From: Solemya velum
Taxonomy: Eukaryota
Assembly: GCA_048127485.1 (NCBI GenBank)
Contig: JBHNWI010000380.1
Coordinates: 43,563,036 to 43,627,035 of the forward strand
DNA: 64,000 nt
Reading direction: 5' to 3'
The position numbers and the translations under genes were made by a program. The notes under the pieces were generated by a model that was not told the DNA's origin, ran no database searches, and saw only the letters and a list, made by a program, of their open reading frames with translations. This document shows positions 15,106 to 64,000 of this stretch, in pieces (position 1 is the first letter of the stretch; each line of letters begins with the position of its first letter).

Positions 15106-15311
15106 ATTATTGTCTCGCCTGCGACAGCAGAAGCGAGACATAGGGATCACTCATTCCGTCCGGCGTTGGAGTTGACGGCGGCGTCAACATTTCATTTCCA
15201 GAGCATAGTTCCTAAACTACTGGGTGGATTGGAACCAAACTGCACACAAGTGATCCCCATGCACCCTAGATGTGCCTTTTGGGGTTAATTGCTTCGCAGG
15301 TGAGACAATAA
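15106..15311. mobile_element. MITE-like element with 18-bp TIRs (TTATTGTCTCGCCTGCGA); a related core copy lies at ~22245-22410
   Basis: Inverted termini are at 15106-15123 and 15294-15311. An internal ~150-bp core (…GTTGACGGCGGCGTCAACATTTCATTTCC…CTAAACTACTGGGTGGATTGGAACCAAACTGCACA…) recurs at 22255-22400. Confidence 0.5.
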
Positions 15312-18699: not shown

Positions 18700-18900
18700 T
18701 CGCCAGAAAATATGCTTTCCAGCTCTCAGTCTTCGCTGCGCGCCATCTTGGAGGTGGTGTTTCATGACGAGCGCATGCGCAAAGAGAGTAACGTTGACAG
18801 AGGAAATAAAAATAAACAAAATGCGCAGACTCCACACTTCCTATCAGAATATGGGCAGGGCTTAACACATAGTGGCGGACCGCCACAATATAATTTAATT
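18700..18900. promoter_or_regulatory. CpG-rich promoter-like island with an NRF1 site (GCGCATGCGC) and a YY1 core (GCGCGCCATCTTGG)
   Basis: Local CpG density is high in an otherwise AT-rich genome. A palindromic GTGGCGGACCGCCAC is present. The island is flanked by a ~28-bp inverted repeat (18567-18595 and 19012-19042). Confidence 0.35.
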
Positions 18901-21900
18901 AATTAATCAAACAAACAATTTACTTTTCGTAACTTCTAAATTTTGCTATTCTCGCAAGGGCCATGAATTCCAGTGTACGTTAAAAATTCAAATGGCCGAG
19001 ATTTTTTTATTTTACTAAAGTTATAAGGAATACCCTTTTAATGTATACATGTATGTGATAATTACCAATGATAATAAGTGCACCAAAAAACTAAAATGTT
19101 ATACACACCAGAAAAAAACATGTTCATATCAGATAATATAATGTGTGCATCAAATCAGTTTTCTTCGCACACTAGATAATTTTAGTTATGCAAACCAGAT
19201 TCAAGCATATCATATGCCATCCTCGGAGACCCTGAGTGGTGAAACTATCCTTCAGCTTTCTTCTTCCCCCCTGGGTTATTATGCAGACAAACATTTGTAG
19301 CTATAATTGGTAAGTGGATCATAAAACTAGTAAGTGGATATGTTTACCTTCCTTTTGTGATTTTGTCTGGAAATTTCCAGATTTTGAATATATATACATG
19401 TAGATTTTAAGTGATCTCAAGGCTTGTTTGAACAATGTCATGGTGAATTTTAATTACTTTTACATACAGAAAAACAAATTGAGGTTTTAATCTTATGTAC
19501 AATGTTTTAAATTCATATAAACTCAAATGCTGATTTCCAAAAACACAATATTTCGGTAAAGAAAAGAAGCAACTCTACTACCCAAGTGTATATTTATTCA
19601 CATACGAAGAAGAAAGCTAAAAATATGGATACTAATAAATTTTTTAATGTTTTTGAAGAAATGTGTCACTCTAATATGATTTCTAGATCATTTCAAATAT
19701 GTTATACATACTCAAGATTTTAGTACTCAATAAATTAAATAGCATTCTGTTGTGTTTTAATTGATGTGCTATATCTACTGATTTATTTTAATATACTTTA
19801 TACTGATGTATTGACTTTGACCTGATTGCTCATGGTTAGAACCTTAGACCCATTCTTAAGGTAGGAAGGTAGCTGGGAAATTGTTCTCAAGCAATGCTTT
19901 CATCTTGCTATGACACTGGGCTACAGTTTTGTGCTGAAATAAACCTTAGCCTCCAAAGTTTGACTTAATGTGAAATTAGTGCTAATTAATAGCAGTCCTA
20001 ATTAGTTTCTGTGGTGCATTTACCATTCTTAAGCACCGTATGTTCTGACCTTGGACTAAAAAACTTCACTCTTAACATTTAAAAACTTTAGAGCCAACAT
20101 TATGTATAAACCTTAGTGGGCTAATATTGACTAATGAGTATAATCTAAGCTAATCATAGCTGGGGCATAGCCAGACACATAATAAAGTGCAGGCCCAAAG
20201 GAGGGAGTAGCATGCTTCCGAGACTTTTTTGAAGAACTGATATCAAATTCCACCTTCTGGACCTCTCCATGGGGGTATATAATGTTATAATTTAATTTCC
20301 TATGTAACAGTGATTTTCATTGGCTAACAGTCTTCGGTCTATACCTCAATAGACCGAAAAAACTGCCTGGAGTACTTTCTCTATTGTAAACACAAATCAG
20401 CCGTCTCTTCAGTACGGATTCTACTGACGATATGCAGATCTGTTTACGTCGGTAGACTAGAAGACTGTAACGTTTTATCTCCCCAACCATCTCAAGTGAA
20501 TTATTTCATATCATAGCCTAAGAATGTAGATCTATATTGTATTTTTCCAACCCTAATAATAATAATCAACATCACAACACAACACAAACGTATAGAATGT
20601 TATTTTGACAATCATTTAATGTTTAAAGTTCCCCTGTAACATTTTAACACCGACTAACTATAATAATAATAAATAACCTTGTGGATTTGGGAGACCCAAC
20701 AAATTAGCCAAAGTTCAAACAGGGCACAAACGTTGATTTCTTAGAGCCAGAACTATGTCATACTACGTAAATGTTTACATTTGTCAGACGGATACAAACA
20801 CTCGGGTCAGCTTAGCTGTACTGCCACATCATGTATATAAAAATCCGTCCGTAGTTACAGCAGAGAGTGATCTATTTCACACAAAAATCCATATCTGGTA
20901 CGTTGTCATTATTGTCGTCCGGAAAATGTTGAGTCGGTAGTTCATTTAATACTCTCATGCCAAATTCAACTGTCTCAAAGTCAAAACCGCCAAGTTTGAC
21001 TACTACTAACGTAGGCTTACTAGTTTCAGCACACACATGGAATGAAAGCCAAGGACACTCTTTCCCAATTCAACTCCGACACTGTTGACAGTTTTATGAA
21101 ATCCCTACTTTTTTCAAATTCATCGTTCCGCAATTGTGTTTTCCATTTCAGTGGCAAATAAACGTGTTATCCTTTTCTGACTGCTGACCTAGATATCTAA
21201 CCTTAGTGTTGACTGGTGCTCATTGTCAAAGGCGACGTCACTAAAATCATTGCGCCGTACACGAAATTGGCTTGAAAATGAAATAGCGAATACTAATTGT
21301 ATTTGTTTCTATGTTTGTTTTATTTAAGCGACAACATGCATTAATTAAATTAGAAGGATTATACCAAATTAATTTTTAGTCTTCGCGGTTTCTTAAATGT
21401 GCACATCGGTTTTCGGTCTATGACCCAATAGACCAAAAATGAATTTGGTATAATCCTTAAATAATTTCAAGAGCTTTTCATTGTTTCAAGTAAACATCAT
21501 AAGTGTTTCAATTTTAAGAAATGTTTGGTATATATGACTAAGAACTCTTTCATAAAACTATTGTACATTAATATAGGTCATAGAGTCTAGATAGTCACAG
21601 TGCATGGAACAAATTTAGTTGTGTCATCAGGCCGATTGAGTATTGAGAAAATGTTGACAATGCTCACTAAGATGCTTCAACTCTTGTGGACTAGTACAAT
21701 AACATGGCACAATGGCTGCCTGCCCCTGTTACCTACAGCGCTAGTCAGTGGTTCTCATTGGGTTAGATTAATGGCACTGCAGATTTAAGCCTATATGTGC
21801 CCACCACATAGACATATATGCGAAACACAATTGTATATTATGTCATCACAATATGTTAAATAAGTAATGGAGCCAGAATAACCCTGTGACAATGCCCCTA

Positions 21901-23941: not shown

Positions 23942-24637
23942 TGAAAATTGTTTTTTTAAATACACAAGTAAGATATATTTGAAAACAAGGTAAAAATCAA
24001 AACGCAAACACCAAATCGTTTCAAAGTACTCCCTACGGTTTCGTCTCCTCATCAGGGAAGTAACTGTTTATTAACGTGACGTAATCATTACGTAACGTAT
24101 ATAAGGGAGGTAATATATATACACAGATCACATAAAGAGAGAAATGACAAATATATTGTGTTGTCTAAATAAACCATCATACCAATTAATTACTGTTAAC
24201 ATATTCAGCAATATAATCGAATATATAATTTGACGGCATATTATATTTCATCGGAAAATACTCATATAGTATAGTAAGAGTCTCTGTTAAAGACGTTATC
24301 AAAACACGATGATTTCAACCATTTCATACAATAATACACAGACATATATAAGCGGGATATTTTATAGGTTTTACGGAGCCAGAGACCCCCCCCCAAAATA
24401 ATGTTATACAATGTAGTAATATGTCCATGTTAAGACACTCTTTAAACCGTTAAAATTAAATTTTGTCATACAATGTTGTAATATGTAGTTAAAGAGATAG
24501 GGTTTTATATGTGGACTTTAACACTGTAGAATTATGTAACAATAATTTGCTTAGACTATTACTCAGACTGTTTAAACATTCTAATACAATGTTAACACTG
24601 TAAATTTCTCTTAGGAAATATTATAAAATAATCAGTA

Positions 24638-25408
24638 TCAATGTGCATTCAATTTAGGGTTATATTTTCTAATAAATTCTTTCTCTTTCGTCACCCTTTC
24701 ATTCTCGGTCGTATCAGAACGTAACTTATAAAATGGATAAATAGAAAATCCAATGATTTTATTTGCAGCGCAATTTGCAATATGACCGCTCAGTGGTATC
24801 ATGCGAACAGACGGGTCCCTAATCTGTTGTTTGTGAACTGTGACTCGTTTCCGCAGTTCAGTACCTGTCTGGCCTATATAGTCCTCACCGCAACCAAGAC
24901 ACCTAATAACATAGAGAAGGTTATTACTGGCACAGTTCATTGGACTTTTGATGTTAAACATAAAACCATTCTTGAATTCATAAGAACGTCCTTCTATTAA
25001 AAATGGACAAGTTCCACAATTCGAGCGTCCACACTTCGTGATTCTTGTATCCTCGCTGGATTTATCTTCAAACTTGGCTTTTGTCAATATTCGTTTCAAC
25101 GTTTTTGGCTGTCTCTGGCTATTTATAATTGGGGATGTTTCTAAAACCTTTTTCATTTTGTGATCCTGTTCCAGTATTGGAATGTTGTTTTTAATTATAT
25201 TGAAAGCTCTTGGGTTACGTGGATTGTAAGTTGTAACTAGCGGTAAGATTTTATCATCAGTATGTACTTTCGTTTCTCTTAATTCCACTTGGTTTTGACT
25301 TCTTGCTTTCTCAATCCCGAAATCAATTAGCTTTTCTGGATATCGTCTTTGTTTCAAATGGAATTTAAGTTCTTTCAATCTGGCATCTCTGGTGGTGGTA
25401 TTTGACAC
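24638..25408 (-). pseudogene. Inverted partial PLE ORF (thumb/linker + Zn-finger + GIY-YIG EN, 256 aa, intact frame)
   Basis: It is ~97% identical at protein level to 26440-27188 on the + strand. GIY-YIG is present as LLYVIRCLGCGEDYIGQTGTELRKRVTVHK. Confidence 0.75.
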
Positions 25409-25496
25409 AATGGTGCAAATTCTCCGAGCTAAATTATAAGGAATATTTCTGATCGTATGTTTGGGGTGACTGGAGTAGAAGAATAAATATTGTTTC

Positions 25497-27188
25497 GTGT
25501 CAGATTATCTTACTAATTTTGAGTGCAAAACTAGCAATTTTTACGGGCTCCCCAAAGTCCACGAGAGTGACACCATAAAGAAAATGTGTGAAGAAACTAA
25601 GTTACCGTACATAGAAATGATAAAACTAGACAATCTGAAACTTCGTCCTATAGTAGCCGGTCCAGCCAATGAAACACACAGACTTAGTTCTTTCCTGGAT
25701 TTACTTCTAAAACCATTTCTTAAACATATACCGAGTTATATAAGAGATGACATCGATTTCCTACAACACCTCCCACAGTCGGTAGAAGAGGATACAGTTT
25801 TAGTTACACTTGACGTTGTTGGGCTCTACTCTAACATACCTCATGATTTTGGTATCAAAGCCCTCGAATACTGGACAAACACCCGGAAGAATTACCCGAT
25901 CGAGTCAGTAAAGAATTTATACTTGAAAGTATGATATTCATTCTGAATAACAATTACTTTCTCTTCAACAACAAGAGCTACAAACAGATAAAAGGGACTG
26001 CCATGGGAACTAAGGTTGCACCCACATATGCCAATTTGGTGATGGGCTATTTGGAAAATTTGATTAATGAAAAAGTTGCAATTGCTTATCCTGATATGCA
26101 TACTGCAAATTTTGTTCAAAACTGGAAGAGATACCTAGATGATTGCTGGTTTCTATTTCGCAAACGTGGGGTAACCTGAAGGAGTTCCACGAACTACTTA
26201 ATAACATCCATGCCGATTTCCAGTTTACAGTAGAATCAAGTGAAAATAAAATACCGTTCCTAGATATTCTTATCATCAAAAAAGAAAACCTACAGATAGA
26301 AACTGACATGTATTTCAAAACAACCGACACGAAACAATATTTATTCTTCTACTCCAGTCACTCCAAACATACGATCAGAAATATTCCCTATAATTTAGCT
26401 CGGAGAATTTGCACCATTGTGTCAAATACCACCACCAGAGATGCCAGATTGAAAGAACTTAAATTCCATTTGAAACAAAGACGATATCCAGAAAAGCTAA
26501 TTGATTTCGGGATTGAGAAAGCAAGAAGTCAAACCAAGTGGAATTAAGAGAAACGAAAGTACATACTGATGATAAAATCTTACCGCTAGTTACAACTTAC
26601 AATCCACGTAACCCAAGAGCTTTCAATATAATTAAAAACAACATTCCAATACTGGAACAGGATCACAAAATGAGAAAGGTTTTAGAAACATCCCTAATTA
26701 TAAATAGCCAGAGACAGCCAGAAACGTTGAAACGAATATTGACAAAAGCCAAGTTTGAAGATAAATCCAGCGAGGATACAAGAATCACGAAGTGTGGACG
26801 CTCGAATTGTGGAACTTGTCCATTTTTAATAGAAGGACGTTCTTATGAATTCAAGAATGGTTTTATGTTTAACATCAAAAGTCCAATGAACTGTGCCAGT
26901 AATAACCTTCTCTATGTTATTAGGTGTCTTGGTTGCGGTGAGTACTATATAGGCCAGACAGGTACTGAACTGCGGAAACGAGTCACAGTTCACAAACAAC
27001 AGATTAGGGACCCGTCTGTTCGCATGATACCACTGAGCGGTCATATTGCAAATTGCGCTGCAAATAAAATCATTGGATTTTCTATTTATCCATTTTATAA
27101 GTTCCGTTCTGATACGACCGAGAATGAAAGGGTGACGAAAGAGAAAGAATTTATTAGAAAATATAACCCTAAATTGAATGCACATTGA
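25497..27188 (+). pseudogene. PLE RT–EN ORF, 5'-truncated and interrupted by at least 3 frameshifts
   Basis: Four consecutive ORFs in different frames (25497-25934, 25931-26179, 26143-26547, 26538-27188) together span RT motifs 1-7, the thumb and the EN. The left-arm copy reads straight through the 26530 region. Confidence 0.8.
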
Positions 27189-27754
27189 TATGATTATTTT
27201 ATAATATTTCCTAAGAGAAATTGACAGTGTTAACATTGTATTAGAATGTTTAAACAGTCTGAGTAATAGTCTAAACAAATTATTGTTACATAATTCTACA
27301 GTGTTAAAGTCCACATATAAAACCCTATCTCTTTAACTACATATTACAACATTGTATGACAAAATTAATTTTAACAGTTTAAAGAGTGTCTTAACATGGA
27401 CATATTACTACATTGTATAACATTATTTTGGGGGGTCTCTGGCTCCGTAAAACCTATAAAATATCCGCTTATATATGTCTGTGTATTATTGTATGAAATG
27501 GTTGAAATCATCGTGTTTTGATAACGTCTTTAACAGAGACTCTTACTATACTATATGAGTAATTTCCGATGAAATATAATATGCCGTCAAATTATATATT
27601 CGATTATATTGCTGAATATGTTAACAGTAATTAATTGGTATGATGGTTTATTTAGACAACACAATATATTTGTCATTTCTCTCTTTATGTGATCTGTGTA
27701 TATATATTACTTCCCTTATATACGTTACGTAGTGATTACGTCACATTAATAAAC

Positions 27755-31529: not shown

Positions 31530-33169
31530 GTGAGATTCATGTTTTTGTGTTTCCTGATTGTTATTAAACCATCACTCCTCAAGCACTGACCAGACTTCAT
31601 AATGTTTCTGGAAACAAAATATATTCTATTATTATTATAGGTTAAAAAACATAAAAAAATTAAGTGTTTTAATTTCTAAGTACTAATATACATTAAAATT
31701 CGTTAGTCTTAAAAAAGATTGAACTATAACCAGTATGGTTTGCAGAGTCACCATCGATTCCAAGTCTATTAGTATTAATAGGTCAGAACTATAGCCTAGC
31801 GGAGAGAGCAGTAGTCTTGAAAATTGCATGCATTTGCACTATAATAGTCACAACAAACCTAAGTTGTAAAAAATTCCTTTCTTGCAGTTACCTGTGAATT
31901 CTTTTTGCCACCTGATTGTCTGACTGGCTGAAGCTCTCTGTTTAATATATATAACTATTACTATGGGAAATTGAGACTTCAGTTGCACATTTCAATGAGA
32001 TGATGCTATAGAGGTCAGTATTGTCTCTGCACTCTCACAAACAGATACCATCTCAATATGATCCAAGTCTATGCAGTGATCCAAGAGACATCAAACCACA
32101 GTACAGCACATCAAAATCTGATTGTTTTGTAGATTTTGCAAGAATCAAGTTGTTACGAGAATCCAGAGAATTTTCTAGGACGATGTAAAAAAGTTTCTTT
32201 ATCTAGGGACATGTGATTTACGAAGCAGGTTCACATGTTATAAAGTAGGTACATGCTACCAAGTTTCAAGCAGTATGGACATAGCCATGTCAGCATGCAT
32301 GTCCTTGCAGTATAAACACAGGGTGATAATTTCCTGTTGGTTAATACAAATTCAATCGCTCAGCACACATCATGGAAGTGACCTACTCCATCATCACCAG
32401 TTACTGTTGCTGATTGTAGAGATACAGAACAGCTAATATATGTAATTGTGACATGAACTTTCTCCAAATCACAAATAAGTTTAATCATTTTCATGTACAT
32501 GTATTTCCATATCTATATTAATATCTATGAAATAACATAGACCTTGTGATATTCATATTCGACCTAGACCTAGTATTTAAGTCATTTCAACACAAGTTTG
32601 TTACTGAAAGATGTTGATCTACCTCTTGGTGATTCCTATCGAAACAGTATATCTGTATGCATCACAATGGAATATATATATTGATATCAATGTCCATCCT
32701 CCCAGTGGTAATGCACCACATTTTCCTGTTAAAAAGGTCCCATTAAAACAAGCATGTTACTGTTGGATCCCAATCAATGTTCAGTTTCTAGCCAAAACAA
32801 TTACTCTGATGAATTCCTGCATGTGAAAAGAAGTTGGTTTAGTGCCAGCCATTGAAAATATACAAACTGGGTGTTATCAGTGAAAGAAATGGGCTGTCAT
32901 TGTCATGGCGTAGTGTAGACATTTGAACATTCAAAAGATTGTAGAATATCACAGAAAAATCACATTGTGTGGGGGTTGCATGTTGTTACGGGATGTCTTA
33001 TCACCAACAGTATTGTAGAGAAAATCGCACCATGGGGCAGTCTTCTGAACTAATTGCTTGGTTAAGTGTTTTAAGAATTTGGGCATTGGCCAATGAGAAC
33101 TTCCAACTCTGTCAGTATTTGGATCTGACATTATAAAGTCAATACTATTTCATACTTGGTAGTATTATT

Positions 33170-34500
33170 ATACCCCACGAAACGAAGTTTCGAAGGGTAT
33201 AATGTTTTTGACGCTTCCGTCCGTCCGTCCGTCAGTCCTGTTTTTGTCAGTGCATTTCCTCTGAAACTACTGAACAGAATTTCCGGAAACTGGTAAGAAC
33301 ACAGTATGCCATTGTACATATTAACGGAAAATTTTGATCCCCTGAATTGGGATTCCCTGAATTTTGTGGGAGTTATGCCCCTTTGAACTCAGTTCACTGA
33401 AATACACTACTGGAGCAACATGTCCTCTCAAAATACTGAATAGAATTTCAGGAAACTTAGTATGTAGTAAGGACAATATGTAGTTAGGGCCCTACCACTT
33501 AGTGGCAACCACTCTATAGTGATCAGTCTGTCTGTATGTCCATCCATCCATCTAACAAATCATGTCCAGGCTGTAACTTTTTTGTTCTTTCATATAAGTT
33601 TTTGATATTTGGCATGTAGGTAGATCACATCTAAACGATGTTGCATTGCTGATTCGTGACCTTTGACCTTGAACTTTGACCTCAAGGTCAAATCATCGCC
33701 TTTTTAATGGAACAATCCATGTTCCAGCTGTGTTTTAATATTTAGGTTCTTGATATTTTGCATGTGAGTGTTGGAATGCCCTATAGTGACCAGTTTGTCT
33801 GTCTGTGCATCTGTTCGTTCGTCCTTGAATAGTGTCCGAGCTGTAACTTTTTTGTCCTCTGCGATAAGCTTTTGATATTTGACATGTAGGTAGACCACCG
33901 AAGACGATGTGTCGCGTTCCATAGTTTGTGATCTTTGACCTTGTACTTTGACCTCAAGATCAAATTATTGCTCATTTATGTGTTCGGGCTGTAACTTCTT
34001 TGTCCTTTGACACAAGCTTTTGATTTTTGGCATGTAGGTAGATCACATCAAGACGATGTGTCACGCTTCATGGTTTTTAGGCTTTGACTTTGAACTTTGA
34101 CTTCAAGGTCAAATTATTGCTTATTTAATGGAACAAATTGTGTCCCGGCTGTGTTTTGTTGTTTAGATTCTTGATACTTTGCATGTGAGTGATGGACCGC
34201 TCTATAGTGATCAGTCTGTCTGTCTGTGCATCCGTCTGTCCGTTTTTAGCGAATCGTGCCCGGACTGTAACTTTTTTGTCATTTGCTATAAGCTTTTGAT
34301 ATTTAATGTAGGTAGACCACCTCAAGACGATGTGTCGGGTTCGTAACCTTCGACCTTGAACTTTGATCTCAAGGTCAAGTAGTTGTCTATTTAATGAAAC
34401 AATTCATGTCACGGCTGTGTTTTAATGTTTAGATTCTTGATATTTTGCATGTGAGTGATGGAAGCCACATAGTGACATCTGTGTGGGTATGTCAATCACA
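33170..34500. repeat. Complex satellite-like tandem array (~135/270-bp unit variants, ~5 copies) containing repeated TGACCTCAAGGTCA palindromes
   Basis: Recurring blocks …GGCTGTAACTTTTTTGT…AAGCTTTTGATATTTGGCATGTAGGTAGATCACATC…GACCTTGAACTTTGACCTCAAGGTCAAAT…TTGCATGTGAGTG…CTATAGTGATCAGTCTGTCTGT lie at ~33570, 33840, 33975 and 34263. Confidence 0.8.
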
Positions 34501-36340: not shown

Positions 36341-36591
36341 TGCTGAACAAGCCTCTAAAACAAATCATCTCCCTCACTCATCTCAACTAATCAGGACTAT
36401 TTCAAGAGTTTGTCATGAATTTTTTGCACATTCATCAATCCTGGTATAAAATCAGTCTTTTCTTTAAATCCAATGAAATATTTAGTAATTGAACTTATTT
36501 TAATTCAAGAAAAAACATTTTGTACTTGGGTTATGAAATTTTGTAGGTCACGAATTTAACTAACCAAAATATAATGGGTTTTTTTTTGCAG

Positions 36592-36786
36592 GTTGCAGGT
36601 GTTGCCCAGCTTTGTGACATCCTTGTTGCTATCAGAAACTCTTCTGTTGAATGTGGATTTGTGCCACAGAATAATCTCAACGAAATCGGTTTTGGACATC
36701 ATGTACCAAATTTATGAGGAACAGAAATTGGATCAGTTTCATGACAAATGTCTGCAAGAACTAATTGGGACCATCATCATAACAAG
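36592..36786 (+). CDS. PIWI: PIWI exon D: GLQVLPSFVTSLLLSETLLLNVDLCHRIISTKSVLDIMYQIYEEQKLDQFHDKCLQELIGTIIIT
   Basis: A TTTTTTTTGCAG acceptor and an ACAAG|GTATGA donor. It matches the Piwi linker-1 region (WPGFxTSILQYExxIMLCxDVSHKVLRxETVLDFM…ELIGLVVLTKY). Confidence 0.85.
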
Positions 36787-37959
36787 GTATGAATGAAAGG
36801 AGGAAAATAGATTTTCAGTGAAGGAAAAATACTATAAGGGATTCATATTGAATTTTAATCTTAATACCTGTCTATCTAGTTTTGGCCCTACACTTTTTCT
36901 CGTGTTCAAAGTGGGCATAGTTGGAGACATAAAAAAGGCTTTCTTCAGATGGCTTGTACAAGGTCCAAAACATTCAATATTTCTCCAAACGATAACTGCT
37001 CTTCCACTGGGAAAAGTAGACTTTCAGAAACAAGCATACAAGATCAAGCTCTTCGAATAAGAAAGCAAATTGTGAAAGGTTACATGTTCGATTTATTTAG
37101 AATTTTGATGTTTTCTTGCAAATTTCTCTGTACTACAAAAAGAGATATTTATATAATTATATTAAGCTGCATGTTTTATTGCAGATTCTGATTTGATTTG
37201 TTTGGACATTCTTTCATTAGTCATTTCGGCAATTTTGTTTTGAGGTTGAAGCCTTTAACCAGAAAGAATTTACACCAATTTCGAGTCAGCTTTCAAAAGT
37301 ATGAGAGATACCAGGTAGGCTATGGAGGTTTTGATGTGATTGCTGCAATCACTGTACATATTAGCTGTAATTGTTTATAGTGCCTCCTGTGTTGCTTCAG
37401 TCGATATTGATGGAATGTTGTCTGTCTGTTTGTAATGAACATAAAGATTCTAAATTGCCACATATCCCATTTGGCTGCTGCTGATTGGTTGAAATTTCAG
37501 TAATGTCTGATTGCGTTCAGTTATGGTATATAGGTGTATTGGAGACTGCAGATCCAACCAGGGCATTCCCAATATATAATCTGCCGTTTCTTAAATCCAA
37601 TGGAATATTTAGTAATTGAATTTATTTTAATTCCAGAAGAAACATTTTGTACCTAATTGCTCTGGTTGGTTGAATTTCCAATGTTGTATAATGTTGTCCA
37701 AGGTTCCTAATTGATCAAGATTTTTTTTCAACTTTTTTCTATCTTTCCTGTTACAATGTGACAAGAGAGATTCTTCTAGAAAATGAGCAATGGCTGCATT
37801 GTAAATACAATTTTTATTCCAGCTACCATAAGAGTGGAACATGAAAGTAGGCAATATGAGCATTTTGGAGCTTTTTTTTAGTACATGTAGTAACTTTTTG
37901 GTACACTCAATAAATACAGCAATTGTAAAAATGTTGAGCTTTCTTGCAAGTAAATGCAA

Positions 37960-38350
37960 ATCCTGGGAATATGAGCATTTAGAGGTTTCCTTTTTATGAG
38001 CATTCAGAGCACTCCTGCATGGCCAACCCATGAAAGTGAAAATGGACAATTAAGCTTTTCCTGCCAGTACATGTATTAAATATGGCAAATGTAAGAACAT
38101 GGAGCATTCCATAACAATGCAAGTACACACAAATGCGAGCTTTATGAGTTTTTCTGCAAATACATGCAAATCCAGGAAATATGAGCATTTTGGGCTTTCC
38201 TTTTGTGAGCATTTGGAGCTCTCCTCCCAGTATATGTAGTGAATCTACCAAATGTGAGCATTTAGAGCTTTTCTTTTTGTAAACATTCAGAGCTCTCCTG
38301 CATGGCCAACTTATGAAAGTGAAAATAGATAATTTTAAGCTCTCCTGTCA
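37960..38350. repeat. Tandem duplication of a ~190-bp unit
   Basis: …GCAAATCCTGGGAATATGAGCATTTAGAGGTTTCCTTTTTATGAGCATTCAGAGCACTCCTGCATGGCCAAC… is repeated with ~90% identity. Confidence 0.6.
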
Positions 38351-38509
38351 GTACATATAGTAAAACAGCAAAAACATTGTGTTCTATGCCATGCAGTGCA
38401 ATGGGGTGTTTCCTTGTTGCACTGGTGTTATAGTATGTTTGCCCGTGTCATGAACGATGTTTGCTATTGGCTAATGGTGGTACCAGTGTCGAGTGTGCCT
38501 ACTATTGGC

Positions 38510-38690
38510 AGCACTCCAGACTAGTCTTTGTTCACACTGTCCAGATGGATTGGCCGTCCTTGACACTGTCCAGATAGTGGGATCCTTTGTTGACACTGTC
38601 CGGGAACCGGGAGCTTCTGTTGACACTGTCTTGAAGGTGAGAGTTTTTGTTGACACAGTCTGGATTGCAGGACGTTCTATAGACTAGTAT
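38510..38690. repeat. 30-bp minisatellite (GACACTGTCCAGATAGTGGGATCCTTTGTT-like, ~5 units)
   Basis: Direct reading. Confidence 0.7.
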
Positions 38691-38999
38691 TATCATGCTC
38701 AGGGCACAAAGACCTTTTTCATCACATCTGTGTTCAATGATATAGCACCATTGTTGGGGAGATCCAAATGCTCCTGTGTTCAAGGTGGGTGATAGGGACC
38801 CAGGTCATCACCATTCCCATAAGAATATTAGTTTCCCACCACTCAGTCAGAACCATTCCCTAAAGTTTTGGTCAGTCTTGTCACTTATCACGTGTCATGC
38901 ACAACTCTGTTCAGTTGTTTGCTGAGTAAATGGTAGAGCGACTTGTCTCACTGTGTCCCCTATATTCGGTACCGGGACACAGAGAGACTCACGCACCGC

Positions 39000-39560
39000 C
39001 ATTTTGTGGAATTATTTTTAACATTGGGCTTATGGCGAGCGCAGCCGTATTCTGCGGACCGGTCTGACGGCGAATAAAACACATGTACATATACCTGATT
39101 GTTTTTCTGCTCTCTATTTTACATATATACATCCTTACACAATCATATCTTTAAGTAGAAAGCCATAAATATGTCGATAACTGCATTTTTCTAGCGTTCA
39201 GGGGGGATTCCGTCAAAATAGATGACGTCAGTTTCGAAGGCCTCGTCCAGTTGCATTGTAATTTGTAAACACGGCTGAATGAAAAAAATCGGGGAAGCCC
39301 TTCCCAATGAATAGCGCAAAAGTGTCACGTGACGCAGCTTTAATGTTCAAGCCAATATGGCGGACAGAACCATCGAACCAACAAAACTTTGCTCTTTCAG
39401 TGGGCGGAACACGTTTATTTAGTGAATGACAGTTACTATATCAATGGATACGAGTTCAGTAACAATCACTGAGGTGACGTACGTATGAAACCGTTGTCTG
39501 TTGGAGGTTGTGCTGCCAAAAATCGCGGCGAGGAGACGGCGGGGTGCTGCGACTGAATAA
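39000..39560. promoter_or_regulatory. Intragenic CpG-rich promoter-like island (YY1-like CCGCCATTTTG and AATATGGCGG, CRE TGACGTCA, E-box TCACGTGAC, CCAAT)
   Basis: CpG density is far above the surroundings and the motif content is as listed. A 15-bp-stem hairpin lies at 38935-38980. The island is in the PIWI intron between exons D and E. Confidence 0.3.
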
Positions 39561-40379
39561 TGAAAGCAAATAATAGGTGCATGAGTCTGTCTCGATGTTT
39601 CTGAGAAAACAATCGTGACAGACTGGTCGGTCTAAGTAAATGGATGGTCTTCTATACTTAACTTCTCTTCTCCTTTCAGAGACATCTCGCCTAGAGTTAA
39701 GACCGACTGCAACTGGGTGGTGGTTTTGTTTTATTTATAACCATATGATTATGTGTACATTTCATTGGAGGAAGATCAGACAATCATGTCTTATAGCAAT
39801 TTGTAGTTCCTAATATATGAAATTTTTGGTACCAATCAATGCTCCTCTCCAATTTTTCTTTCATTGGATTGTCTGAGATATGGATGCACATCTGACCATG
39901 TTGCTTACTCCCTTGTCTCGACTATTCACTGCATTGTTGACAAATCTTCAGGCCAATGATCATCAATCCTGTTCTTACCAGTGATGGTTTAACTAGAGCC
40001 AATCATTGCTCTTCTGCAGCGATGTTATGTGTTATCACCTGTTTCGCAACAGTGCTAGTTTTCTGGGTGTTCTGTTCAGTTGGGCATAATCGGTGTGATT
40101 TTGATGCACAGCCACAAGTAACTTCTGCCTCCATGTGCATGATTCATATGTTTTGTCCTGTATGCCAGTTCCTCTTCTCACCCCATTTGGACTGCTGTCT
40201 TCTTGGAGTTGAAACACTTGCACTCTTCTCATGCTTTCATTACTCGCACCTTACCTAGTGTTGCTAATGCACATTTTCATTCTTGTGCCATTCGGCAGAC
40301 CAGGGTTCAATAATATCTCATAGTGATTTCTTCCATGCGTCTTGAAATTACTATTTTTGACAAAGTTTCTTTGAACCCC

Positions 40380-40700
40380 CAGTGCTTGGTGGATTTCTGC
40401 TTCATCAAGCAATGACGCATTCTCTGCATCTGGATTATTCTGCAGTTTTCACTTTATACTTCGGTGGCAGAACTGTTAGGCTAATTGGCCATCAGATTGT
40501 ACCCACTTCATGCATCGCCAGACTTTATTTCCACCAATTCTCAATTGTCAGTCGGCTTGCAATGATTAGACCTAAGTGCTTTGAACAACTACTTCTAGGT
40601 GGAACTTCAATTTAGAACAACCTAGCTCCATAATTCATAGTCTTCGACTCGGCAAATACCAGGAAGCCTATTCCCCCATTTGGTCCACCGTTGAAGGTGG
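40380..40700. repeat. Interspersed repeat copy (same family as 50890-51130)
   Basis: GTACCCACTTCATGCATCGCCAGACTTTATTTCC…GACCTAAGTGCTTTGAACAACTACTTCTAGGTGGAAC corresponds to GTACCCACTCCGTGCATCGCTGACTTTTATTTTC…GACCTCAGTGCTTTGAACTGCTACATCTAGGTGAAAT. Confidence 0.5.
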
Positions 40701-40999
40701 AGTAGTGTAACAAACAAAATGGATGTTTTGATTGTGCATTAGATGAGAAAGCCAGAAGTGTTTGTGTTTCTTACATGTATATGTTTTTTATGCAGTTTTT
40801 CTAGCTTGGAGTATGTTGTGTCATTTTTAGACTTGCCAAGTCTCTTTCTTAATTAATTCAGTTATTCTATGTATTTTTTACACACGTAAATAAACACTAG
40901 TGTATATTTCCCTTCATTGTGTCATTCATTTTTTATCAGAATTCTGAATCAGCTCATGGTATTATGTTCATGCGTACGGATTTGTGTCATGAGCGCGGA

Positions 41000-41450
41000 T
41001 CTCTAGCAAACATGGTTGGTCGTACAAGTGGGCGGGGCCTATGTATTGAACCGAGTCAGGTGCGCGCGTCAGTCAAAATATCACGTGACACAAAAACTAG
41101 TGTCACACTCAAAAAAAACGGTCGAAATAAAGTTTTCCAGCGGTGATGGGATGCTGGGTTGTGCAATATATATATATGCAGTAGCCATATATCCCATCAC
41201 CCCGAAGGAAAACAGTCGTGTCATTAATGTTTCGCCAACAACAGAAGCCTTTATCTGCACAGTTTGTTTATAATCTCCTCGCCACTGATTGGCTGCGTAC
41301 TGACACACCCCAGAGCTGCTGTTAGTGCCTGCAGAGTTTACAAGTCCCCTTGCCGGCTAGCTGTGTGGATAGGGGAGATAACTCGGGCGCGGGTCTACGG
41401 CCAAAAGAAGGCAAGGAGACTATGTCATTTTGTTCAGTACTTTCTGACCC
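41000..41450. promoter_or_regulatory. Second intragenic CpG-rich promoter-like island ~120 bp upstream of the PAZ exon (Sp1 GGGCGGGGC, E-box TCACGTGAC, NF-Y CCAAT as CCACTGATTGGCTG)
   Basis: It has high CpG content with the motifs listed. It sits immediately 5' of exon E. Confidence 0.3.
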
Positions 41451-41568
41451 TCCCATTTTGAATGAATTAATCATAACAGCTGACAGTTCTGGCAATTATT
41501 TGGCTTCATTAATTAGCATTGATTCTCTTGATATAATGTTATATTACATGTTTTGACTGGACCAACAG

Positions 41569-41680
41569 GTACAACGGCAGGACTTATCGTATTGATGACA
41601 TCAATTGGGAGGCTCACCCCACAGACAAATTCCAGTTGAATGATGGCACAGAAACCACTTTTATTGCCTATTACAAGAGG
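41569..41680 (+). CDS. PIWI: PIWI exon E (PAZ): [38 protein letters not shown]
   Basis: An ACCAACAG acceptor and an AGAGG|GTAATT donor. It is a near-canonical PAZ block (YNNKTYRVDDIDWxxxPxxTFxxxDGSExSFxEYYxKQ). Confidence 0.9.
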
Positions 41681-49018: not shown

Positions 49019-49210
49019 GTGAGTTGACATTTTTGAAAGGTATATCAATTCTAGCTTGTTGTCTCAGTACTCAATCTATATGAAAGTACTCATTAAATAA
49101 AGCTGTCATCAAATTCTGTTTATTTCCAACCTGTTGAATGTGCCACCCTTTTCCCCAATAGGTTTCTTACTTTATTCTGTAATATGGAAATACAGCTGTT
49201 TCCATCTCTA

Positions 49211-49462
49211 TTACCGTAAAATCTCGATTACTAGTCGCGTCTCGAATAGTAGTCGCACCCCGACTTTGGAGTGGTTTGAGTGAAAATTCCCCCGTACTTT
49301 CAAATCTGGAAATGGCTCAATTACAAGTCGCATCAGATTTTCAATGAACCCGACCTCAAATTTCTCAGAAATTGTCTTATTTATTTGATAGCGTCAATTA
49401 TTGGAATTGTAACTCTTAATCTCGAACACTAGACGCGACTAGTAATCGAGATTTTACGGTAA
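49211..49462. mobile_element. MITE (~250 bp) with 33-bp perfect TIRs (TTACCGTAAAATCTCGATTACTAGTCGCGTCTC)
   Basis: The inverted termini are read directly, and the internal region has no ORF. Confidence 0.6.
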
Positions 49463-50889: not shown

Positions 50890-51130
50890 TGTTTTTTTTA
50901 CTAGAAATGTCATTTTTTCCTGTTAATGCATATTTACCACCACTGCAGTGGGCTAAGGTTCATCCTTTTGCTTTACACTCTGCAGTCTCATTGTTTGCCT
51001 ATTTGACGTTCAGGTTGTACCCACTCCGTGCATCGCTGACTTTTATTTTCGCATATTCTACGTTGTCTTGACCTACAGGGTTGGGTTCAGTGACAGACCT
51101 CAGTGCTTTGAACTGCTACATCTAGGTGAA
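50890..51130. repeat. Second copy of the interspersed repeat seen at 40380-40700
   Basis: See the 40380-40700 entry. Confidence 0.5.
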
Positions 51131-51229
51131 ATGTTTTCCTTAGGAATCACCCTGCTCCCTCATTCACCCTCTTCGACACGGCATATTTCAAGAGGGGGAT
51201 GCCCAACTTTGGTAGTCTGTTGCTTCTGG

Positions 51230-57277: not shown

Positions 57278-58271
57278 CTAAACTCTCGACAACACATCTG
57301 CCACTATATTTTCTGAACCAGGAATATACACAACTTTGAATTTGAACTCCTGCAATGTGAGACTCCATCTCAACAGTCTCTGGTTTGACATTTTGACACT
57401 ATCAAGCCATTTCAAAGGTGCATGATCTGATTCAATAATGGACTCTGTATCTTCTAAATATACCCTCAATGATTTCACCGACCATACTATGGCATAGCAT
57501 TCCTTTTCTATGACCGCATAGTTTCTCTCAGAAGTACTCAACTTTTTACTCATGTACAACACTGGATGCCTACCATCATCAAATGATTGTTTTAACACCG
57601 CCCCAACCCCGTGTCACAAGCATCTGTCCTAAGAATGAACTGTTTTTCAAAATCCGGACTTCTCAATACTGGTCCCTTCAGCAAAACCCGTTTCAAACTT
57701 TCAAAAGCCTGTTGCAATGTTTCATTCCAAATCACTTTGTTTGGCATTGATTTCTTTGTCAAATCAGTCAATGGTATAGCCAATGTTGCAAAATTCTGAA
57801 CAAATTTTCTATAGAACCCCACGAAACCAAGGAAACACTTTACCTGTTTCTTTGTCAGTGGTTGTGGAAAATTTTGAACGATTGCCATTTATCAAGTGTA
57901 GGTTTCACCATCCTATTTCCTACAACATGAGCTAGAAACACTAATTGTGGGAATCCAAAGCTACATTTGCTCGGTTTAGCAGACAAATTAGATTTCCTCA
58001 ATGCTAGAAATACCAGCCTCAGATGCTCTATGTGATCATTCCAAGTATCACTGTATACACCTATGTCATCAATAAATGCTTCTGTGAATGACTCGTAACC
58101 CTGCAAAACCTTGGCCACGAGACGAACAAACGTCGCTGGCGCACAAACCATACCAAATGGCATAACAATGAAACGATACTGACCGAATGCCGTAACAAAA
58201 GAGCTCTTTTGTTTGGCATCTTCATCCAGTGGTGCCCCGTGGGGATCCGGGGTAGAATAGATCCTCTGCAC
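57278..58271 (-). mobile_element. Ty3/gypsy-type LTR-retrotransposon pol fragment (RT + RNase H), truncated at its 5' end by the LINE insertion
   Basis: Minus-strand ORFs carry …PFGMVCAPATFVRLV…AFIDDIGVYS… (RT, YxDD), …FLGFVGFYRKFVQNF… and …ERNYAVIEKECYAIVWSVKSLRVYL…DHAPLKWL…VVYIPGSENIVADVLSR (RNase H). Upstream at 56250-57270 there are possibly LTR-like repeats. Confidence 0.8.
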
Positions 58272-61200
58272 CCCCTTGCATTCGTAAGAGGCGATAAAAT
58301 GGGGGCAACCCGTTTGCCGTGGGTTGCGACCCGTGATGGCGGAGATGGGAATCCTGATGGCTGAGGAGTCCCGTGGTACGCCCCCCTTGGTTATATAGAG
58401 TCTTGACCATTTCTCTCCAACACGCCATTTTGGCCCCGTATTCGCCTAGACGGGTGGTTAGGGTTGGCTCGCCCTAATCAATCGGCTGGTCATAACAGGT
58501 CCTGGAGTTGTGACCAATAGTTCTCGGTTAAAAACTTTTATCAAACATATTTTTAGAAACAAATTTGAATTCTTTTCTATTTCATTGACTACTTTCATTT
58601 CTCATCATGTCACCTCTCCAGAAGACGATGGCTTAGAGTCAATCGAGTGGTTAAATTTGGCATTGTGCGTTCAGGTACACATGGCGCCATGTGTGCATGG
58701 ACGCACATTATTTTATTTCTCTATTCGAGTATAGCACTTGCGTAGCCCTGACAGGGGTGTGCGCTGGGTATTCCCGCACTTCTCTGTCCCCTTGTTGGGC
58801 TCCGAGGCGGGTGGGGAGCGCAAGTGTCGAATAAATAATCCATACCCATGGCTTCCAAAACAAAGCAAAACCATTCTGCGTCCTCACGTCATTTAAAACG
58901 ACAAAAGCTCGCGGTGGTTGATTCGACATCTGAATCAGATACTATGATCAGTTGTCGAATCATCATCTACTACAGGTAATAGTTGGCCTCGGTTCGTTGT
59001 AATCGAGGGCAAGAATGAAAATTTACAAAATTGTCACCTTTTGCTATATGCAAAGGTTTTCAAAGTACATGTGGAGACCCCCAATCAGTAAAGACCCTTC
59101 GTTCAGGATGCTTGCTGGTTGAGTGCGCTACTCCAAAACAAAGCTTCACACTACTAAAACTTAACAAATTTGTCAATCAGTCTGTTACAGTCACACCACA
59201 TAAAACTCTGAACACATGCAAAGGTGTGGTCCGTTCCAGGGACCTTCAACACACTGATGAGTCTGAGATGCTCCTTGGTCTCAAGGACCAAGGGTAACCC
59301 AGGCTCAACGGATTCATGTCAGACGTGGGATGGCAGGGTGCCTACAAACACTTACATCCTCACATCAACACACCAAAAATACCACCTTTTATCAAAGTTG
59401 GGTATATACGCATCACTGTCGAGGCGTATATTCCCAATCCTCTTCGTTGTTTTAAATGTCAACGGTTTGGCCATCACCAGGGACCTGCAAGCGAGAGGCT
59501 GTGTGCTCTCGCTGCAGTGAAGTTGGTCATGATGGCTCTTCATGTACAAAAACAATGAAATGTGCCAATTGTTCAGCACAACATTCAGCATTTTCTAAAG
59601 ACTGTTCATTTTGGAAGAAGGAAAAGGAGATTCAGCGCGTGAAGGTTGTTCGGGGTATGTCATTCCCTGATGCCAGGAAATTTGTGGAGGCCACAACTGT
59701 AGGTCAGTCTGGCAAGTCGTTTGCGGACGCGGCCCGAGTTGCCAAGCCAGCCCCCACAAATCTGTCTCGGTACAGACAGATATGACATGGCCCGAGCAAC
59801 TTCCAACTTTCGCTCTTCTCCCCAGTACTCAAAAACTATGAAAACTGTTTCTTCAACACAGACCACAACCATCACTCATCCCAAGACTGCTACTGGTAAA
59901 ACACCAACAGCAAAACCTTCCGTTCCCCCAAAACCTACTAAGAATAAATCATTGCTCTGACCCCTACTGCACTTGTTAAAATCACCCCTGAGCCGCCCGT
60001 TACACCTCAACGGCGGCCCCGGATCACAAGGTCAAATAGGCAGAAGAAGGGATCAGATGATCCTATCAAGCTGCACAATCGCTATGGCAGCTTGATGGAG
60101 TCTGATGACCTCTCTTCGTCATTTGATCCACTCAGTCCTAGCAAACACAAACATAGTCCTCATAAACCCACCTCATCATTCTTGATGATATTATGGAAGT
60201 GAGTGTCAACTCCTCCCAAAAACAACTTTTTTCTGGCTGTCCTTCGGAGCCTATCGACCCCGAAGTGATGTGCCCATCGACCAATACAAGTCCTATTAAA
60301 GGACCGAGTCCCATTAAACACCCTTAATGGAGAACTCCAAAATCATTCAGTGGAATTGTAGAGGTTTAAAGGCCAACTTTAATGAAATAAGTCTTCTATT
60401 AAATGATAAGCAACCTGCAGTCGTATGCTTGCAGGAAACACTTCTCAATGATAAAGATACCATTACTTTTAAAAACCATTCTATGTATAATTTCATTTTT
60501 CCCACCGAGAATAGAGCTTGTGGTGGTGTTTCTGTTATTGTTAATAATAGAACACCCCACAGTCCTGTCTCTTTGAACACCAACCTGCAAGCAGTTGCAG
60601 TCCGTGTTACACTACACAAAACAATCACTGTCTGTTCTCTGTACTTACCGCCTTCGTCAACTATAATATAAGTGACTTAGACCATCTTGTCACACAGTTA
60701 CCCACACCTTTCATGTTACTAGGCGATTTTAATGGCCACAATTATCTATGGGGTTGCAGAGATATTAATGCCAAGGTAAATTAATAGAAGACTTCATTTC
60801 AAAACACAATCTCTGCCTTTTTAACAATAAAACTTCTACCTATCTACATCCCGCTTCGGGATCATACACTTCCATTGATCTTTCCATCTGTGATCCATCA
60901 GTTTTCTTGATTTTACATGGAGAGTCGACGACGACCTCCATGGAAGTGATCACTTTCCCATCATTTTAGACACCACGGGCCAAATCAACCAGATAGGGCA
61001 CCGAGGTGGAATTTACCTAAAGCAGATTGGACTAAGTTCCAGAATCTGTGTGAGGATCGATTATCTCACTTTACAGTGAAGGATGATCAAGACCCTATTG
61101 AGATTTTTTACCTCTATTTTACATGATGTGGCTACAGAAGCCATACCCAAAACGTCCTCAACTTGTGCCAAATTTAAAAAACCATGGTTTACAGATGAAT

Positions 61201-64000
61201 GCAAGGATGCAATTAGTGAACGCAAGAGGGCACTACGTCTTTTTAAACTGTGCCCTACTGCTGACAATCTTAACAGTTTTCGTATATTTCGCGCAAAAGC
61301 TCGGCGCACTATTCGAATAAACAAGAGGAAGACTTGGAGAAATTACGTCTCCAAGTTGAACTCGCGTTCTTCCATAAAAAAAACATGGGATATGGTTCGA
61401 AAATTCAGGGTAAATCAAAATCTAACCATGTCCATCACCTTAATAGTGATGGAAAACTGATTACATCTGTTCCAGATATAGCGAATACCCTGGCGGACGC
61501 TTTCTCCCACACAACTCTTCTGCAGAGCATTGCTCTAAAGAGTTCTTCGCGTAAAAAAACGCAAAAGAGAAACGCCCGCTGAAATTCAAATCCAAAAACA
61601 CCGAGGATTATAATAAAGTTTCTCTATTAGAGAGTTGAAAGATTCTCTTAATAGAGCCAATGATACCGCTGCTGGACCCGATGAAATACCCTACCAGTTT
61701 CTGAAACATTTACCTGATACAGCTCTTCTCTTTGCTTGATATTTTTAACAATATATGGCAATCTGGTAATTTCCCTCCCTCATGGAGGGAAGCTACTATT
61801 ATTCCCATACCCAAACCCGACAAAGATCATTCTAACCCCACAAATTACCGCCCTATTGCGCTCACTAGTTGCATTTGTAAAACCATGGAACGTATGATCA
61901 ATGATAGACTTGTCTGGTTCCTTGAATCAAATAAACTGTTAACCAACATTCAGTGTGGTTTCAGGAGCCAGAGAAGTACTACCGACCACTTGGTCAGACT
62001 AGAAACTTTTATTCGCGAAGCTTTTATTCGTAAAGAACATGTTGCATCTATCTTTTTCGATCTTGAAAAAGCATACGATACAACATGGAAATATGGTATA
62101 ATGAATGACCTGTTTGATATGGGTCTCGAGGACATTTACCTCACTTCATTAGCAGTTTTTTATATGATAGACATTTTAAAGTAAAGTTGGGTCTACCCTT
62201 TCTGACCTGCATGATCAGGAAATGGGTGTACCACAGGAAGCATATTATCCGTTACCCTTTTTAGTATAAAATCAATAGTCTTGCGAAATGCATAGCGCCA
62301 GGAGCTGAGGGATCTCTGTATGTTGATGACTTCCTCCTGTGCTATCGTTCAAAAAATATGAATAGCATTGAACGTCAACTCCAGTTGTCGCTTAATAAAA
62401 TACAAAAATGGGCTGACAATAATGGTTTTAAATTTTCTAAAGCCAAAACAGTTTGCATGCATTTTTGCCAATTACGAGGAATTCACCATGATCCCCAGTT
62501 ATTTCTCAATGGCACAGCGATTCCTGTGGTAAGGAAACTTTCTGGGTATCATGTTGGATCCCAAGTTAACTTTTGTACCTCATATTAGATATTTGAAGTC
62601 AAAATGCCATAAAGCTATTAATTTTTTGCGAGTTGTAGCACATACCGACTGGGGGCAGATCGTCAGGTTCTGCTCCGCCTTTATAGATCACTTGTCCGAT
62701 CAAAGTTGGATTATGGTAGTGTAGTCTATGGCTCAGCTAGAAAATCATATCTGAAGTTGCTCGACCCCATTCATAATCAGGGTCTTCGATTATGTCTTGG
62801 GCTTTTAGAACCCCCTGCGGAAAGCTTGTACGCCGAGGCCAATGAACCTTCCTTGTATCTTCGACGTAAAAAGCTTTCTTTGCAGTATGCTACCAAGCTG
62901 TACTCAAACCCTGATAACCCTGCTTTTGACTGTGTTTTTAATCCCAAATATGAAGTTTTATTTGTACAAAAACCTAATGCTATTCCAACTTTGGTATACG
63001 TGTTGGTCCTGAACTTGCGGAAGCTGGTATTGATGTGGATCAGATAGCTGCGAACTCGGTGCCGAGATCTCCTCCTTGGTTGACAGCAACACCGAAAATA
63101 CTTTTTGACTTGAACAAGTCAAAAAAGGCCACTACGGATCCACTTCTTTACCGTTCCCATTTTTTGAGCTTCGTGATATTTATAGGAATTTTATAGACAT
63201 TATACTGATGGGTCAAGGGAGGGTGACCACGCGGCAGCTGCAGTCGCAACTCCAACTGGCATCCTCTCTACAAGACTTCCTGACAAATCTTCAATTTTTA
63301 CTGCTGACTTCGGGCTCTTCTCATGGCACTAGACTATATATAGAGTCCCGTGGTAGAGAGTTCATTATTTTTTCAGACTCTCTGTCATGTTTACAAGCAT
63401 TACATTCTTTAAAGTTCAAAAATCCCATTATATCTACCATTCTTGCAAAGCACAGCTGCCTTCTCTCCCGAGAGAAGACAATTGTGCTTTGCTGGATACC
63501 CAGTCATGTCGGTTTCGTGGTAATGAACGGGTGGATTCTGCAGCTAAAAAGCACTGAATTCACCCATAACTGATTTCAAAATATTATATACAGATTTTCA
63601 GTATTACATTTTTAAATACATACGTATGATCTGGCAGTCCAGTTGGAACGAGGCTCTTTCCAATAAGCTTCACGATCTGAAGCCTATTTTAGGTGAATGG
63701 CGTGGAGCTTACAGGAACATTCGTCGTGAGGAGGTTGTACTGTGCCGATGTCGCATTGGGCATACTCTCCTCACACACTCATTTCTTTTAAGGGTGACAC
63801 TCAACCGCGGTGTGTTTCTTGTTGCTGTCCTTTGACAGTGAAACACATCATGGTTGAGTGTCCACATTTAGCCAGCAATAGAGACCGTTTTTACAGAGTC
63901 CGAACAATGCTAGACTTGTTCGGCTCTGTTTCTACCGACCAGATTTTAATTTTTTAAAGTATACCATTTCTTTTCAAAGTTTTAAACACGTTTTATAATT
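58272..64000 (+). mobile_element. Non-LTR retrotransposon (I/LOA/Nimb-like clade: gag-like ORF1 with CCHC knuckles; ORF2 with APE–RT–RNase H–CCHC), frameshifted, running off the 3' window edge
   Basis: The ORF1 region 59031-59785 (frameshifted across 3 frames) has CxxC…H…C knuckles. ORF2 spans 60327-63957 across ≥9 frame changes. It includes APE (QWNCRGLKANFNEISLLL…VVCLQETLL), RT (NYRPIALTSCICKTMERMINDRL…FDLEKAYDTTW…), RNase H (IFSDSLSCLQAL…WIPSHVGF) and a C-terminal CCHC. Confidence 0.8.

Follow-up and report, generated by a model that had tools for sequence, protein, structure and literature searches.

Two CpG-rich patches in an intron of a Solemya velum PIWI gene are probably small DNA transposons with promoter-like interiors

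Promoters lying inside genes of the small-RNA pathways have been described before. In human PIWIL2, an intragenic promoter in intron 10 drives a truncated protein, PL2L60, and this promoter is a 50-nt HLF/STAT3 module, as shown by reporter assays and chromatin immunoprecipitation (PMC5542253). In mouse oocytes, according to PMC5857283, which cites Flemr 2013, a Dicer isoform arises from an MT-C long terminal repeat (LTR) in a Dicer intron, with a new first exon, expression and phenotype all demonstrated. For the 5' promoter of a Piwi gene, the core promoter of mouse Miwi was defined in transgenic mice; it combines an NF-Y CCAAT box with a USF E-box and is regulated by methylation (PMC3355075). 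Binding of NF-Y to transposable elements (TEs) is documented as well (PMC12065363). Here we analyse a 64-kb stretch of the Solemya velum genome (contig JBHNWI010000380.1, positions 43,563,036 to 43,627,035), called the window below, which carries a PIWI-family gene on its plus strand. Within one intron of this gene lie two CpG-rich, motif-dense patches that a first-pass annotation had read as promoter-like islands. They probably go back to two separate and fairly recent insertion events of small DNA transposons that are non-autonomous and carry terminal inverted repeats (TIRs); we call them E1 (701 bp) and E2 (595 bp).

This reading starts from how the patches end. Each has a 9-bp target-site duplication (TSD) and inverted termini exactly at its borders, and for this reason neither is, most likely, a host CpG island; both would be transposon insertions. 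E1 occupies positions 38934-39634 and corresponds to the first island. The 9-mer AGTAAATGG flanks it at 38925-38933 on the left and again, with 9 of 9 bases identical, at 39635-39643 on the right. The TIRs of E1 are about 65 nt long: the left one (38934-38997, plus strand) starts TAGAGCGACTTGTCTC, and the right one (39576-39634, minus strand) reads TAGACCGACCAGTCTG as the reverse complement. Three inverted-repeat pairs (I1-I3) were found at the ends. The outermost 16 bases are inverted-identical at 12 positions, and an alignment of the 75-nt ends scores 32, with 49 matches in 64 columns. Shuffled ends gave a mean score of 8.6 (standard deviation 3.7) and never reached 32 in 2000 trials, and among random, equally spaced window pairs this score was reached by 8 of 3000. 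Both ends share a common build, in which about ten terminal bases are followed by a hairpin and then by ...GAGACTCAyGCACC. The hairpin begins 11 nt from each end, with stems at 38945-38959 and 38974-38988 on the left and at 39584-39596 and 39612-39624 on the right, and the fold z-scores are -4.2 and -5.5 respectively. Because the two stems differ in sequence and yet both pair, this suggests that the hairpin structure, not its sequence, may have been kept at the ends of E1. That E1 is a transposon insertion we regard as highly likely.

E2, the second candidate non-autonomous TIR element, spans positions 40828-41422. Exact copies of TGTCATTTT (9 of 9 bases) flank it at 40819-40827 and at 41423-41431, and the second island as annotated before lies inside E2 up to 41422, its last part (41423-41450) consisting of the TSD on the right and flanking intron. 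The left end reads TAGACTTGCC..., TAGACTTGCCAAGTCT, and the right end, as the reverse complement, reads TAGTCTCCTTGCC; aligned, the termini are TAG(A)CTTGCC and TAG(TCTC)CTTGCC. Taken alone, the 9-bp repeat is weak: from base composition we estimate that the searched box should contain roughly two chance 9-mer repeats, and two distinct ones were found there. An unbiased ranking was made that covered all 1713 non-trivial 9-bp repeat pairs lying 80-3000 bp apart in the window. For likeness to the E1 termini, the ends of E2 rank first of about 1711 other pairs, and above them stand just E1 itself and an artefact overlapping E1's own end. When similarity to the E1 TIRs was computed across all window positions, the left end of E2 came out at the 9e-4 level and the right end at 3e-2. 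A search of both strands (128 kb) for TAGAS-N4-6-WGTCT gives three matches, at both ends of E1 and at the left end of E2. No alternative pair of boundaries for E2 was better than 40828/41422. It is thus quite likely that E2, too, is a transposon insertion.

All four termini of E1 and E2 begin with TA, in the form TAG(A), and the termini are related around interiors that are unrelated. The two were considered as copies of one family and rejected as such: local alignment of the interiors is no better than for shuffles, and the termini alone are alike. A single composite element from 38934 to 41422 was also discarded, with outer termini and flanking repeats that mismatch. For E2 by itself, an origin as a short or long interspersed nuclear element (SINE or LINE), a Helitron or a solo LTR was dismissed on inspection by eye, in which an A/B box, a poly-A tail, TG..CA ends and a 3' CTRR hairpin were all missing. 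E2 also contains a perfect 11-bp inverted repeat at 41142-41201, GGTGATGGGAT / ATCCCATCACC, around a 38-nt (TA)-rich loop.

The base composition of the two patches sets them apart from the intron around them. The window is eukaryotic and invertebrate-like in character, with 36.6% GC and an overall CpG observed/expected ratio (o/e) of 0.49. Measured in 200-bp windows, the CpG o/e lies at 1.0-1.4 for 38900-39700 and at 0.74-1.18 for 40900-41400, compared with 0.0-0.5 in the flanks. E1 has 44% GC and a CpG o/e of 1.18, E2 44% and 0.87. The whole intron has a CpG o/e of 0.53, which falls to 0.24-0.34 outside both elements (0.24 to the left of E1 and 0.34 for 39644-40827), and neighbouring introns have 0.35-0.37. 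The left CpG boundary of E1 is sharp, with the first CpG of the island 5 bp inside the element end. Thus the annotated contrast between CpG-rich patches and CpG-poor surroundings (1.18 and 0.87 against 0.24-0.37 in the introns) holds. Their description as GC-rich holds only moderately. The CpG-island criteria of Gardiner-Garden and Frommer ask for at least 200 bp, at least 50% GC and a CpG o/e of at least 0.6. The CpG criterion is reached throughout both patches, and 50% GC is reached solely in the 200-bp window at 41201-41400 (52%); the first island peaks at 47% GC in 200-bp windows.

Nor are CpG-undepleted patches special to this PIWI intron, as the first-pass annotation had implied. About ten others lie in the window, and several overlap retroelement open reading frames (ORFs). 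CpG o/e is 0.83 in a Penelope-like pair, 0.84 in an LTR-type reverse transcriptase (RT)/RNase H region, 0.68 in a LINE and 0.97 in a GIY-YIG-like ORF region. Because recognisable retroelements of the same window also retain CpG, we read the CpG richness of E1 and E2 as a sign of recent insertion: the elements would have arrived CpG-rich and would not yet have been eroded by the methylation-driven CpG decay that depleted the gene body. We infer that the richness reflects youth, with no need for protection from methylation. Both insertions also look recent because their duplications are perfect at 9 of 9 bases. When PIWI is expressed normally, splicing would remove both elements along with the intron.

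For the superfamily, TSD length serves as a guide (PMC10045372). TSDs of 9 nt are typical of Mutator-like elements (MULEs) and those of hAT elements are 8 bp (PMC2528002); Merlin elements combine an 8-9-bp TSD with a conserved terminal 5'-GG (PMC8101967). E1 and E2 both have 9-bp TSDs, and the MULE superfamily would fit best, provisionally and on TSD length alone. The TIR of about 65 nt in E1 is a further likeness, as long TIRs are typical of MULEs. In contrast, the E2 TIR measures about 10-13 nt, and neither a transposase relative nor a family consensus nor further copies were found. For hAT, the 8-bp TSD does not apply to either element, and trimming the duplications to 8 bp leaves the inverted termini misaligned by one base; the TAGAG at the left end of E1 does resemble the hAT terminus YARNG. 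For Merlin, the TSD length fits, but the termini are TA, not GG. In general build, E1 and E2 have what a non-autonomous TIR transposon should have, namely a TSD of fixed length, TIRs, no transposase ORF and a small size, and being small, noncoding and intronic they resemble miniature inverted-repeat transposable elements (MITEs) or deletion derivatives.

The noncoding character of the elements was examined in several ways. A six-frame Pfam scan of 38700-41569 found no domain, and none of the ORFs of at least 40 aa in the intron segment is protein-like. A tRNA scan and Rfam, at the gathering threshold and at E-values up to 1, gave no match in the elements. The ORFs of at least 38 aa in E1 and E2, concatenated, had no match in a collection of 5.8 billion proteins; this stood in for a search among ORFs predicted on related contigs. 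By similarity, neither a captured exon nor a parental host locus was found, within the window or to any protein.

Several observations weigh against the reading of the patches as transposons. The TIR of E2 is short, about 10-13 nt, and requires a 3-nt indel; beyond it the 75-nt ends of E2 do not align. No further copies of E1 or E2 were found in the 64-kb window by blastn at word size 9 or by a TIR pattern search, and the left and right TIRs of E1 had no exact match in scans of JGI metagenome contigs; the species is apparently not among the collections, to judge from the best match of the LINE RT (59% identical) and the best PIWI matches (60-68%). Neither an autonomous partner nor a transposase was seen. 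The methylation model is itself derived from CpG depletion. The CpG o/e of E1 exceeds that of the other TEs, and together with the motif enrichment described below this would also fit active promoters protected from methylation. The first-pass annotation had named both segments being TE copies with multiple genomic hits as an outcome that would refute it, and the structural half of this is what we found, with a TSD and inverted termini on both segments.

Besides their ends, the interiors deserve attention. The motifs listed earlier for the patches, namely YY1-type cores, a cAMP response element (CRE), E-boxes, an inverted CCAAT and a GC box, could all be located. GCCAT/ATGGCG cores lie at 38997-38998, 39032 and 39357, and GCCATNTTG, which we take to be a YY1-type motif, is matched in full at 38998 and 39353. 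The single copy of TGACGTCA in the 64 kb is at 39223. CACGTG occurs five times in the window, including 39326 in E1, 41082 in E2 and 38889 just outside E1; GGGCGG occurs six times, including 39402 in E1 and 41030 in E2; and the NF-Y box GATTGGC lies at 41287 in E2. In E1 the promoter-like motif cluster extends over 38998-39480. To quantify enrichment, motif counts were compared with those in dinucleotide-preserving shuffles of each segment. For the motif set of the earlier annotation, E1 had 8 occurrences against 1.1 expected, a count that 0 of 2000 shuffles reached, and E2 had 2 against 0.8 (P=0.18). Because this set had been picked after the sequence was viewed, the test was rerun with a second, independent list, made up of the ten top-ranking conserved human promoter motifs. 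With this list, E1 had 5 occurrences against 0.96 expected (P=0.0013) and E2 had 4 against 0.70 (P=0.005). The motif-densest 650-bp stretch of the window is the E1 region. Given the enrichment with the independent list, both interiors are, at the level of motif content, promoter-like beyond their own composition (YY1, CRE, E-box, GC box, NF-Y). The promoter-like character noted before is therefore statistically real, but with TSDs and inverted termini around it, it is most likely not that of host CpG islands. A scan for bacterial promoters and terminators gave background-level counts and is not relevant to a eukaryote.

Could the whole pattern be a chance swing in composition with chance motif matches? 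This is hardly credible. The lack of enrichment of E2 for the earlier motif set and the two or so 9-mer direct repeats expected around E2 would agree with it, but the CpG boundaries are sharp, the E1 TIR score was reached in none of 2000 shuffles, E2 ranks first of about 1711 pairs, and both elements are enriched for the independent motifs.

In the reading as transposon insertions, the promoter-like motifs would be the elements' own cargo, either left over from the promoter of a transposase or part of a 5' region captured from the host, and they would give the elements a latent, putative capacity to start transcripts. This reading leaves one feature unexplained, the motif enrichment that two unrelated interiors share. 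The transposon-borne promoters may be active, so that E1, E2 or both would start sense read-through, antisense, nested noncoding or PIWI-interacting RNA (piRNA)-precursor transcripts; judged from sequence, we consider this unlikely. The enrichment of both interiors, the motif density of E1 and the two full GCCATNTTG matches speak for activity, as do the precedents of PIWIL2 intron 10 (PMC5542253), NF-Y on TEs (PMC12065363) and the Dicer MT-C LTR (PMC5857283). On the other hand, motif matches are not activity, and the motif list was vertebrate-derived; a sense isoform in particular would have no in-frame ATG or good splice donor, and its product would start within the PAZ domain.

The comparison with the described systems follows the same lines. 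As in PIWIL2, a member of the PIWI family contains a promoter-like element that precedes the exons coding for the C-terminal part of the protein. The PIWIL2 promoter has experimental evidence, whereas here there are motif matches alone (YY1, CRE, USF, SP1, NF-Y), in an intron within the PAZ domain and with no usable start codon near. With the Dicer case, the locus shares an intronic transposon in a gene of a small-RNA pathway that could supply a promoter and truncate the N-terminus; there the element is an LTR retrotransposon, whereas here we have DNA transposons without a splice donor, known from their sequence. The earlier statement that E-box plus CCAAT is linked to germline piwi promoters agrees with the Miwi core promoter (PMC3355075), and CACGTG, GATTGGC and a GC box are present in E2, CACGTG and CCAAT in E1. 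Miwi, however, has a 5' gene promoter, and the motifs here are generic housekeeping ones inside mid-gene transposons.

Whether a transcript from these patches could encode a shortened PIWI protein depends on the exons around them. The concatenated exon translations match proteins of Pfam PF02171 and also align to the solved structures of PIWIL1, PIWIL2 and Siwi. The closest PIWI matches are 60-68% identical; the nearest named ones, from lungfish and Mytilus, are about 45% identical over one exon. The exon upstream of the intron, exon D (36592-36786, plus strand), codes for ...SVLDIMYQIYEEQKLDQFHDKCLQELIGTIIIT(R), where the linker ends and PAZ starts, and its translation ends ...ELIGTIIIT(R). 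Its 5' boundary is approximate, with an acceptor AG at 36590-36591 or 36597-36598, and its donor is AG|GTATGA. In phmmer searches of PDB, the alignment of exon D to PIWIL1 begins near residue 281, and that of the isolated PAZ constructs 3O7V, 2L5C and 3O7X begins at 'SVLDIMYQ...', which is encoded in exon D. The intron between exons D and E (36787-41568, plus strand, 4782 bp) holds both E1 and E2. Exon E (41569-41680, plus strand) lies in mid-PAZ and aligns to the PAZ domains of PIWIL1 and PIWIL2; it has an acceptor ...ccaacag|G, a donor AGG|GTAATT and no in-frame ATG. The placement of the patches just upstream of the PAZ exon is thus correct in that exon E is a PAZ exon, but PAZ already begins in exon D. 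Since the PAZ constructs align from exon D, a sense transcript from the second island would miss about the first 35 PAZ residues. An in-frame stop lies at 41534-41536, no in-frame ATG follows it from 41537 through the whole of exon E, and direct reading found no consensus-like GT donor in 41400-41568. An N-truncated protein would need a downstream ORF that starts with ATG and has an intact PAZ, and no such ORF was found. The PAZ start in exon D, the lack of an in-frame ATG and the lack of a good GT donor all disfavour the N-truncated PAZ-PIWI isoform that had been proposed.

It is on these grounds, too, that a host-encoded origin of the islands can be judged. In such a case they would be internal alternative PIWI promoters giving an N-truncated isoform, and the flanking repeats would be coincidental. 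A CpG o/e near 1, promoter motifs 150-500 bp upstream of exon E, the E-box and CCAAT combination of the Miwi promoter (PMC3355075) and the intragenic promoter of PIWIL2 (PMC5542253) are in line with this idea. It nevertheless appears very improbable, as a TSD and TIRs delimit both islands exactly, bona fide TEs in the window retain CpG equally, and the product would have a broken PAZ, which starts in exon D. Such an isoform would also have neither a start codon in frame nor a splice donor.

The stretch between the elements bears on another possibility, a small nested host gene or a bidirectional promoter pair, in which the islands would be the 5' ends and 39644-40827 the body. The promoter-like patches lie about 1.2 kb apart, and two minus-strand ORFs, 40448-40254 and 40250-40038, are in the same frame with one stop between them. 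In contrast, no frame of 38700-41569 has a Pfam domain, and the islands carry transposon boundaries. The presumed body is CpG-depleted like ordinary intron and includes a fragment of an old dispersed repeat at 40474-40657, the sole dispersed-repeat match that blastn gave for this intron, which is 70% identical over 197 nt to 50992-51186 and is itself CpG-depleted. We give the nested gene or promoter pair a minimal chance.

A more far-reaching version of the transposon reading concerns gene capture. Pack-MULEs, which carry transduplicated host gene fragments between MULE termini, are known mainly from plants and preferentially carry GC-rich 5' gene fragments; to our knowledge, capture of this type is not established in animals. 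E1 and E2 are similar to them in having related termini around unrelated interiors that are richer in GC and CpG and resemble host 5' or promoter sequence. They might then be animal counterparts of Pack-MULEs, each with a different host housekeeping promoter and acting as intragenic promoters for antisense, nested or piRNA-precursor transcripts, which we hold to be decidedly improbable. MULE transduplication has been discussed (PMC2528002). The present elements differ from Pack-MULEs in having no identified parental locus or captured exon and in their animal host, so that the likeness is one of resemblance alone. If true, Pack-MULE-like cargo would be directly coupled to the expression of a transposon-silencing gene.

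As probable small TIR transposons, E1 and E2 are an ordinary feature overall. The correction they bring is that a CpG-rich, motif-dense patch within a gene of a CpG-depleted, presumably gene-body-methylated genome is not a promoter island by itself. Recognising the transposon boundaries helps to avoid the annotation of a false internal promoter or isoform for PIWI. If promoter-like cargo in small TIR elements were found genome-wide, it would bear on the spread of promoters by DNA transposons in animals and on the regulatory consequences of insertions in a piRNA-pathway gene.

Other repeats are present in and around the intron. Upstream of E1, diverged repeat units of about 210-283 bp lie at 37850-38370, and just before E1 there is a 30-bp tandem array of about 3.6 copies (38526-38664, consensus CTTTGTTGACACTGTCC...); both are CpG-depleted. 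On either side of exon D, in the flanking introns, lies a copy of an 81-bp direct repeat (89% identity), at 36445-36525 and 37573-37652. In an upstream intron, repeat units at 33515, 33782 and 34203 start TATAGTGAyCAGTCTGTCTG, loosely like the right terminus of E1, TAGACCGACCAGTCTGTC. A tandem array occupies 33832-34127, with CpG-undepleted patches near it (33100-34400), and these units may form a related or MITE-derived array.

Farther away, CpG-undepleted patches for which our checks gave no TE annotation lie at 15001-15300, 18601-18900, 21101-21400 and 49201-49400; among those upstream, one may be the true 5' promoter of PIWI. The Penelope-like pair consists of two near-identical copies arranged head-to-head in inverted orientation at 24579-27247, with GIY-YIG and RT domains; their ORFs at 24641-25504 (minus strand) and 26517-27185 (plus strand) share sequence, and the outer 30-mers match almost perfectly. 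Downstream of the last identified PIWI exon (about 55 kb) lie the LTR-type RT/RNase H fragment (57281-58445, minus strand) and the LINE (60318-63900, plus strand), which is frameshifted, carries endonuclease, RT and RNase H-like ORFs and is 59% identical to its best outside relatives.

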